32,000 nucleotides of DNA from a virus: positions 1 to 32,000 of the IMG/VR virus record IMGVR_UViG_3300025141_015510, one strand, 5' to 3'. Of this stretch, positions 12,281-13,287 are shown piece after piece. Each line of letters starts with the position of its first letter. Position 1 is the first letter of the stretch. A program made the position numbers and the translations under genes. The notes under the pieces are model-generated. The model saw only the letters and a program-made list of their open reading frames with translations, ran no database searches and was not told the origin of the DNA.

Positions 12281-13024
12281 GTGTTAGAAATTGGAGTTGA
12301 TGAGGTAGGTTGTAGTAGTATTATGGGACCAGTATCAGCTTGTGCTGTTATTGTTGAAAAGGGACAAAAGAAGGTTGCTGACGTCAATGATTCAAAACAA
12401 TTAACCAAATCAAAAAGAGAAAGTCTTGTTGTTGGAATAAAAAATGGAGTTCTAGCTTACGGGGTTGGGTCAGCAAGTGTTCAGGAAATAAAAAAATTAA
12501 ATATATTCTGGGCTAAATTTTTAGCAATGCGAAGGGCCATTTCTTTTATTGTATCTAAAGGATTTATACCTGATAAAATTTGGGTTGATGGCAATAGAGA
12601 AATCCCCAATATAGATTACAATCAAGAGGCAATAATTCGCGGAGATAGTAAAAAATGGGAGATTGGCGCTGCTAGTATTATTGCCAAAGTAACAAGAGAT
12701 AATTTGTTAGCAGATTTAGAAGAAAATATTAAGCAATATTCTTATTATGATATTAAAAACAATGCTGGATATTTTACAATTCCTCACATGAAAGGAATTA
12801 TTAAAAATGGATTTTCTGATTTACATAGACAAGAATTTGTTTATTCTAAATTCTGTATTTCATTACATAAGGAATATATGAAAGGGGCTTGTGGGTTAGG
12901 ATCTGTGGACAATTGGTTGGCGTCAGAATATGGAGATAGAATTGACTTAGAAGACGACTGGGCTCTATATAAGTATTGGAAAACTAAGAAACAAATGAAA
13001 TTGAAAAGCTTAGGATGGGACTAA
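12281..13024 (+). CDS. rnhB: ribonuclease HII
   Basis: IGVDEVGCSSIMGPV (G.DE.GRG...GPV), NDSKQLTKSKRE, VDGN, AASIIAKVTRD, GY.T..H, HR..F. I prefer the GTG at 12281 after AAAGGAGGAG over the track ATG at 12239. Confidence 0.85.
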   Translation: MLEIGVDEVGCSSIMGPVSACAVIVEKGQKKVADVNDSKQLTKSKRESLVVGIKNGVLAYGVGSASVQEIKKLNIFWAKFLAMRRAISFIVSKGFIPDKIWVDGNREIPNIDYNQEAIIRGDSKKWEIGAASIIAKVTRDNLLADLEENIKQYSYYDIKNNAGYFTIPHMKGIIKNGFSDLHRQEFVYSKFCISLHKEYMKGACGLGSVDNWLASEYGDRIDLEDDWALYKYWKTKKQMKLKSLGWD

Positions 13025-13287
13025 TGAATGAAAAAGAAATGCGAAGAGAGTTAGAATTTATATATGATTTAGAAGATGATGGGGCTATGCCAATATATGC
13101 TGCTCCTATTATAGACGCAACTGATGCGGGAAATAAAAATTTAGAAGAAGACATTGAAAATAAAATAAAATGTGTACTATGTAAAGAAAAAAATGTAAGA
13201 ATAAAGAACTTTCCTTTTTGTTCTGAGACTTGTCAATTGGCGGATCTTTATAATTGGTTTTCTGAAGAATATATTATTAAGGATTAA
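13024..13287 (+). CDS. yacG: YacG-like zinc-finger protein (DNA gyrase inhibitor family) with acidic N-terminal extension
   Basis: The C-terminus KCVLCKEKNVRIKNFPFCSETCQLADLYNWFSEEYII matches E. coli YacG [40 protein letters not shown] (C..C, PFCS..CQL.DL..W..EE..I). TAATG overlap with rnhB; an ATG at 13015 is also possible. Confidence 0.65.
   Translation: MNEKEMRRELEFIYDLEDDGAMPIYAAPIIDATDAGNKNLEEDIENKIKCVLCKEKNVRIKNFPFCSETCQLADLYNWFSEEYIIKD

Follow-up and report, generated by a model that had tools for sequence, protein, structure and literature searches.

YacG of Escherichia coli is, to our knowledge, the only structurally defined protein that turns DNA gyrase off through the pocket of the TOPRIM domain, a pocket that is also of antibiotic interest, and its gene lies in the coaE-zapD-yacG operon, away from gyrB. 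Here we analyzed a YacG-like gene that is carried together with a gyrB gene by a virus-like element: in the first 32,000 nucleotides (nt) of IMG/VR record IMGVR_UViG_3300025141_015510, hereafter the window, the YacG-like open reading frame (ORF) occupies positions 13024-13287 and the GyrB gene positions 18359-20263, both on the plus strand. In E. coli, Trp40 of YacG enters a GyrB pocket made of M461, L509, F513, R516 and F777, and the W40V substitution abolishes GyrB binding (Vos et al. 2014, PMC4083091). Ile47 packs against H505, L509, F777 and L780, and I47A weakens binding about threefold; D36, K30 and Q33 touch GyrB R516, D481 and Q517, and W18 and P26 touch Y515 (PMC4083091). The tail past residue 52, including Trp59, docks on GyrA between the winged-helix domains, and it is dispensable, since truncation of residues 52-65 leaves inhibition similar to wild type (PMC4083091).

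The literature found describes YacG as encoded on the chromosome in many Proteobacteria and, beyond that, in two annotated prophages. YacG-like genes in the Pseudomonas prophage vB_PaeP-D14I (PMC10449497) and in the Desulfovibrio-type provirus SNV1 (bioRxiv 10.64898/2026.08.12.739948) were interpreted, at the level of annotation, as putative inhibitors of host gyrase. The first-pass annotation of the window, which knew of no YacG homologs described as phage host-takeover factors, must be amended on this point, and viral YacG is therefore not new in itself. As far as their descriptions allow a comparison, the prophage proteins share with the window protein the YacG family, carriage by bacterial viruses and a proposed action on gyrase; however, the accessible parts of both papers treat host-gyrase inhibition alone and mention no phage-encoded GyrB, whereas the window gene belongs to a conserved module with a viral GyrB in large uncultured viruses. 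LUZ24 Igy, CGP3 Gip and Mu GemA are likewise small phage proteins acting on DNA gyrase, but they come from unrelated families; in the accessible parts of their descriptions all target the host enzyme (Gip binds GyrA), and none is reported to be linked to a phage-encoded gyrase subunit. Our literature search found no paper linking YacG to jumbo or huge phages, and the retrieved papers on gyrase inhibitors described no phage-encoded GyrB partner. The new points are that YacG and GyrB form a conserved module across a clade of uncultured large viruses and that the window protein has a fused architecture without the tail.

The YacG-like reading frame was recovered as first called, in the ORF list and its translation, with 87 amino acids (aa) plus stop on the plus strand, and it is a genuine zinc-ribbon protein of the YacG family. 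Its residues 49-86 matched profile positions 2-42 of 52 of Pfam PF03884 (YacG) with 38.6 bits (E=8.7e-10), above the gathering cutoff of 25.5. The NCBIfam equivalog models NF002362 and NF001638, whose cutoffs stand for the same function as proteobacterial YacG, were not reached (33.5 versus 79 and 27.9 versus 83 bits, respectively). The best sequence matches in the PDB were YacG itself (1LV3, 4TMA) and were weak, because the matched stretch is short. The zinc ribbon (13171-13233; C50-x2-C53 ... P64-F65-C66-x3-C70) formed invariant columns in alignments of 20 and 47 sequences, and C50, C53, C66, C70, P64, D74 and W78 were invariant or nearly so among the 47 relatives; the four-cysteine ribbon is thus present and is predicted to bind zinc. 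An AlphaFold2 (AF2) model built from the 47 relatives had a confident core (predicted local distance difference test score, pLDDT, 85-94 over residues 41-80, including the ribbon). Its top Foldseek match in the PDB was 4tma_J, the gyrase-bound YacG (probability 1.00, root-mean-square deviation 2.0 A over 43 columns, 37% identity), which was also the sole meaningful one, the remaining matches having a probability of 0.08 or less. The profile match, the four cysteines, the equivalents of Trp40 and Ile47 and the 4TMA fold together bear out the first-pass call of a YacG-like zinc finger. Zinc-ligand changes were seen in relatives: the fourth Cys is replaced by His in the yacG of L101/L021 (CSEEHK; locus handles are given as L numbers), and the third by Asp in that of L105 (FPFDKEIC), both proteins being otherwise conserved.

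Alignment with E. coli YacG revealed that P64, Q71, D74, W78 and I85 are the equivalents of P26, Q33, D36, W40 and I47, of which the last four lie in the GyrB-contact helix and short end (13234-13284). Both proteins consist of a CxxC...CxxxC ribbon followed by one helix, share the fold of 4TMA chain J and have, or are predicted to have, as their target the TOPRIM surface of GyrB, which is conserved in the neighboring viral GyrB. Unlike its E. coli counterpart, the window protein ends two residues past I85 and so is without the acidic, Trp59-containing tail that docks on GyrA in E. coli; it has a foreign, acidic N-terminal extension of 36 residues, carries R59 for W18 and E68 for K30, stays under the NCBIfam cutoffs and is encoded, as part of a module that includes gyrB, on a virus-like element. 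The window protein thus retains each residue with a demonstrated role in GyrB binding and lacks the GyrA-docking tail. A genome scan (L335-L414) also located cellular YacG-family genes beyond Proteobacteria, in Thermodesulfobacteriota, Planctomycetota, Acidobacteriota, Myxococcota, Verrucomicrobiota, Aquificota, Chlamydiota and Poribacteria, a distribution broader than the "many proteobacteria" of a 2024 review.

The presumed partner, a type IIA topoisomerase B subunit of 634 aa (18359-20263, plus strand), contained all four GyrB Pfam domains, in agreement with the earlier statement that the element encodes its own B subunit, and was closer to E. coli GyrB (46% identity, 478 bits) than to ParE (38%, 387 bits). 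Comparison of the ten published YacG-contact positions (461, 481, 505, 509, 513, 515, 516, 517, 777 and 780) revealed MDHLFYRQFL in E. coli GyrB and MPHLFYRQFL in the window GyrB, which thus has the E. coli residue at nine of ten contacts, including all five of the Trp40 pocket, which in its own numbering are M463, L510, F514, R517 and F607. The other ten full-length GyrBs of the clade described below read [M/L]-x-H-L-F-F-R-Q-F-L. E. coli ParE, which is not inhibited by YacG, reads VDHLLVKHRA and differs from E. coli GyrB at no fewer than six of the ten; the Listeria and Enterococcus GyrBs read IDHLLYR[Y/F]FL, that of Staphylococcus IDHLFYRFFL, and other phage GyrBs were variable. Among the sequences compared, Gln517 and the F[Y/F]RQMP motif that contains it were common to E. 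coli and the clade only, and Gln517 was found neither in ParE nor in the three Firmicute GyrBs, eight other phage GyrBs or the GyrB of L108. Phe513, kept in the window GyrB, was likewise missing from ParE and from several GyrBs without a YacG. Identity to E. coli over the TOPRIM region was 58-67% for the clade and 61-66% for Firmicutes, that is, both are similarly divergent.

The single lost contact, Asp481 (P in the window GyrB), sits in a gapped and variable loop, and its YacG-side partner, the K30 equivalent, is mostly Glu. A charge-swap covariation between K30 and Asp481 was considered and rejected, on account of this gapped, variable loop and of L107, which breaks the pattern. Given the nine kept contacts and the complete Trp40 pocket, the viral GyrB looks competent to bind YacG, not resistant. 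This does not support the first-pass proposal of a YacG-resistant, element-encoded B subunit: the contact surface, whose conservation in the element's own GyrB had been named as evidence against that proposal, is essentially that of the sensitive E. coli enzyme. Some clade GyrB ORFs were unusually long (939 to ~1365 aa; L117, 10168-12987; L118, 9992-14089; L119, 6270-9488) and contained in-frame insertions of ~0.8-1.6 kb that look like inteins or homing elements; the one in L118 interrupts TOPRIM between E. coli positions about 503 and 497-530.

The association of the two genes extends across the clade. Loci were gathered from YacG and, independently, from GyrB, and in all 13 sampled GyrB loci of one clade (the window, L101, L102, L103, L104, L105, L106, L107, L117, L118, L119, L023 and L084) a yacG-like gene was located upstream of gyrB on the same strand. 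Some handles denote the same contig (L101 and L021, L103 and L006, L107 and L008, L117 and L007), and L077 has the same sequence as L107. The loci range from 28 to 56% in GC content, and ten of them are on IMG/VR contigs of 50-442 kb. The order was RNase HII, YacG, GyrB, with RNase HII upstream of yacG in most members; yacG and gyrB overlap in L023 and abut in L117, and ~4-5 kb of other genes separate them in the window and L107. A neighbor-joining tree of 380 N-terminal GyrB columns placed all 13 in a single clade, apart from E. coli, Firmicute and other phage GyrBs. L108, a GyrB locus with neither YacG nor GyrA, was considered as a clade member that had lost YacG and was rejected, because it grouped with E. 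coli GyrB in the tree. YacG-like genes were absent from all the other phage GyrB lineages.

In 21 other phage GyrB loci a GyrA was identified at a distance of up to 10 kb, in most cases directly downstream of GyrB; the clade members had none within 10 kb of their GyrB. Nor was GyrA found in the 10-kb flanks on both sides of the window, and single-protein scans for GyrA gave no matches; GyrA was also sought by a GyrA-alignment scan of viral contigs (best 80 of 122) and by a scan for the AAMRYTE motif (among the matches listed). Two further IMG/VR contigs (L009 and L010; 155 and 100 kb, 56% GC) carried a yacG-like match (10001-10114) among ORFans near the contig end, had no GyrB in the stretch reaching 10 kb upstream and 3 kb downstream of it, and may represent a second, GyrB-independent viral use of YacG. 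Between yacG and gyrB, the window contained a C5 cytosine methyltransferase (16093-17247) and an adjacent 227-aa protein (17204-17887); the same pair occupied this interval in the distant 56%-GC relative L008 (10570-11724 and 13675-14220) and could be a methylase with a partner nuclease.

These results fit a protein that, in the manner of E. coli YacG, would dock on a GyrB subunit at its TOPRIM domain, with Trp78 entering the hydrophobic pocket and Ile85, Asp74 and Gln71 packing alongside, so that the complex would block the entry of DNA into the cleavage groove. The partner would be the virus's own GyrB, inherited together with the yacG-like gene, and the protein may also bind host GyrB if the latter has the same pocket. 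We infer such binding and inhibition, and the viral GyrB as the physiological target, and give about an even chance to the reading that the YacG-like protein acts as a built-in, reversible regulator or guard of this GyrB. The intact docking surface and the co-inheritance with viral gyrB make control of the virus's own enzyme more likely than disarming of the host. Regulation of the element's own enzyme, which the first-pass annotation had offered as its alternative, therefore appears the better fit. If so, some viruses would control or guard a topoisomerase of their own instead of attacking that of the host, and a YacG locked to viral GyrB across a deep clade would provide natural inhibitor-target pairs for studying interface evolution.

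Several observations weigh against this reading. The clade is a single lineage, so that descent may account in part for the retention of the linkage and of the interface residues; it offers few independent events, and phage gene order can stay conserved without interaction of the products. In the window itself, about 5 kb of inserted genes part yacG from gyrB, and with R59 and E68 two YacG-side contacts are gone. On the GyrB side, L509, R516, H505, F777 and L780 are conserved in most GyrBs, positions 461, 513 and 517 alone discriminate, and even the Staphylococcus GyrB equals that of E. coli at eight of ten contacts. Binding of host GyrB may, moreover, be the main role of the protein.

A role in host takeover, in which the protein would inhibit host gyrase early and an insensitive viral GyrB would take over, possibly with host GyrA, can draw on the facts that YacG is a proven gyrase inhibitor, that phages encode gyrase inhibitors of other families (Gip, Igy) and that the two prophage genes were interpreted in this way. 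The lack of a GyrA within 10 kb of any clade GyrB also fits, as do the changes at the K30 and W18 equivalents and the loss of Asp481, which leave an interface not identical to that of E. coli. However, a GyrB with the Trp40 pocket and nine contacts kept resembles the sensitive E. coli GyrB, not ParE; the co-inheritance of the gene with viral gyrB is strict over the range of hosts that GC contents of 28-56% imply, and phages whose GyrB belongs to another lineage lack the gene, a pattern unexpected for a general anti-host weapon. We consider this role unlikely. The protein could also be a guard that does not discriminate, binding viral and host B subunits alike and keeping both off DNA, which would protect from gyrase poisons (host toxins, defense systems or natural products) or damp ATP use. 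The conserved pocket of viral GyrB and the YacG-like genes on viral contigs without a nearby GyrB (L009, L010) are compatible with it, and a protective role of cellular YacG has been summarized (PMC10886550), but the tight operon linkage to viral gyrB suggests a specific partner, and we regard such a guard as quite improbable.

Still further from the preferred regulatory role, the protein may not act on gyrase at all: the zinc ribbon may have been re-used as an adaptor, for example for RNase HII or, through the fused N-terminus, for the partner of the neighboring 146-aa protein, or the gene may be a decaying copy. The missing C-terminal tail, the fused N-terminus, the conserved position next to RNase HII and the zinc-ligand substitutions in the relatives L101 and L105 would agree with this; against it, the protein retains all residues with a demonstrated part in GyrB binding, W78 and D74 do not vary among the 47 relatives, several contigs of different samples carry the protein unchanged, and L101, with neither tail nor extension, still keeps the core. 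We give this the least credence. An extension of the regulatory reading, which we think very improbable, would make YacG a dedicated third component, a zinc-finger gatekeeper of a viral gyrase-type enzyme, co-inherited throughout the history of the clade: given that no GyrA was seen near the clade GyrBs, the viral B subunit may pair with a host A subunit, YacG would decide when the hybrid engages DNA, and the fused N-terminus of this strain would stand in for the GyrA-docking tail that was lost. If no viral GyrA exists to partner the viral GyrB, the system would represent a new means of taking over a host enzyme.

The architecture of the window protein departs from that of its relatives at both ends. 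A typical clade YacG has 50-65 aa, starts with MKCPIC and ends in a short acidic tail; several tails carry a terminal aromatic motif (FWRN, SWGN, FWKN) reminiscent of E. coli Trp59, and some end in W or F. A subgroup without this tail, made up of the window, L101/L021, L022 and L005, ends in IIKD; within it, the close relative L101 has neither tail nor extension and keeps the core. As claimed earlier, the N-terminal region is acidic (14 acidic and 6 basic residues among residues 1-49). Residues 1-36 (13024-13131, plus strand) aligned to the N-termini of 143-155 aa genes located just upstream of yacG in L002, L021 and L022, in two blocks (MNEKE.R and PIYAA.I) that a ~17-residue deletion separates; shuffling gave p 0-0.007. 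Judging from this two-block match, part of the neighboring gene's N-terminus was copied and fused to yacG to give the extension, which is not ancestral. Residues 37-49 (NKNLEEDIENKIK; 13132-13170, plus strand) correspond to the native YacG N-terminus, equal to residues 2-14 of the short YacGs of relatives: the L101/L021 protein begins M-NKNLKEDIEKQIKC, and the window has G-NKNLEEDIENKIKC at the same point. More generally, the short YacGs of L021, L022 and L005 begin M-N[KEQ]NLK[EK]DIE, for which the window equivalent is G-NKNLEEDIE. Between Met22 and Cys50 there was no ATG, GTG or TTG, and therefore at least 28 extra residues must be translated. The AF2 model contained a helix at residues 3-17 and had low confidence at 18-37, the acidic linker. 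Homology of the extension to that of L107 or to P0008 was also considered and was too weak to claim.

The start of the gene coincided with a change in sequence identity between strains. In L002-L004, RNase HII and yacG are separated by two additional genes, of 85 and 146 aa, that are missing from the window. Comparison of the window with L002 (around 13021-13024 and 897-1585, respectively) revealed 99.5% identity over window positions 13021-13856 but 80.7% across RNase HII, and this step therefore places a recombination or deletion junction exactly at the yacG start. The mosaic junction points to a recent recombination or deletion between co-circulating strains. The window copy is a derived form that lost the tail and gained a foreign N-terminus. 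Activity was probably kept despite the loss of the tail, since the E. coli protein truncated at residue 52 inhibits as well as the full-length one.

At its 5' end, the gene follows RNase HII (12239-13024, plus strand; Pfam RNase_HII, 5e-31), and the RNase HII stop codon (13022-13024) and the YacG-like ATG (13024-13026) have one base in common in the sequence TAATG. AGGA lies ~9 nt 5' of this ATG, and a second in-frame ATG was located at 13015. The translational coupling to RNase HII that had been proposed is thus matched by the one-base overlap in this strain; it is strain-specific, given the two intervening genes in L002-L004. The same 87 residues were found on these three other contigs, and relatives 61-71% identical were located in syntenic loci, which shows that the ORF is not due to chance. 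A scan for terminators near the gene found none. A word-indexed protein search returned the protein itself only, none of 50,697 GenBank phage records matched the protein in tblastn or 13 kb of sequence in megablast, and PHROGs contained no family for the protein. A Cys-rich ORF of ~118 aa on the minus strand (13277-13849, with a probable Met start that confines it to 13277-13633) converges with yacG, whose stop it overlaps by 11 nt. This ORF is conserved in L002-L004, L021 and L022, is the sole conserved minus-strand gene of the region and has no Pfam hit.

The window has a GC content of 31%, and all of its predicted genes but one are on the plus strand. They encode a CCA-adding enzyme, RNase HII, an IMPDH/GMP-reductase-type protein, an HNH-like protein, the C5 methyltransferase, GyrB, FtsK, a protein with a DnaG-type zinc ribbon, SbcCD, a deoxynucleoside monophosphate kinase and a Cas4-like nuclease, besides one tRNA-Leu (anticodon AAG; 7909-7982) ~1.6 kb upstream of the CCA-adding enzyme gene. 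Identical genes were found on marine metagenome contigs of up to 96 kb, whose flanks (L014-L020) encode a DnaE-type Pol III alpha subunit, an NAD-dependent ligase, dUTPase, QueF, an aminotransferase, a WGR-PARP protein and a trigger factor homologue; this replication and chaperone set is unusually cell-like for a virus. IMG/VR lists relatives on contigs of 50-442 kb as viral. The ~70 kb examined contained no gene for a capsid, portal or terminase protein, and viral identity therefore rests on the IMG/VR classification and gene content.

Among the matches listed in a search of GenBank phages with the window GyrB, identity was at most 46% and several were evidently bacterial gyrB genes; there is therefore no cultured representative among them. 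One such record, MG065691.1 (Campylobacter phage A11a; L418), contained a gene 100% identical to E. coli K-12 gyrB, and UNVERIFIED_ORG phage records (H6, H9, H14) from Listeria, Staphylococcus and Enterococcus contained GyrBs 54-56% identical to that of E. coli that look bacterial; these are probably host or contaminant DNA in the phage collection. Finally, the window contained three paralogous ORFs (8476-8871, 8871-9350 and 11923-12084) that share the N-terminal motif MKIR..FVSNSSSSSF and have no Pfam hit, and homologues of 8871-9350 are located near yacG in L006 and L007.

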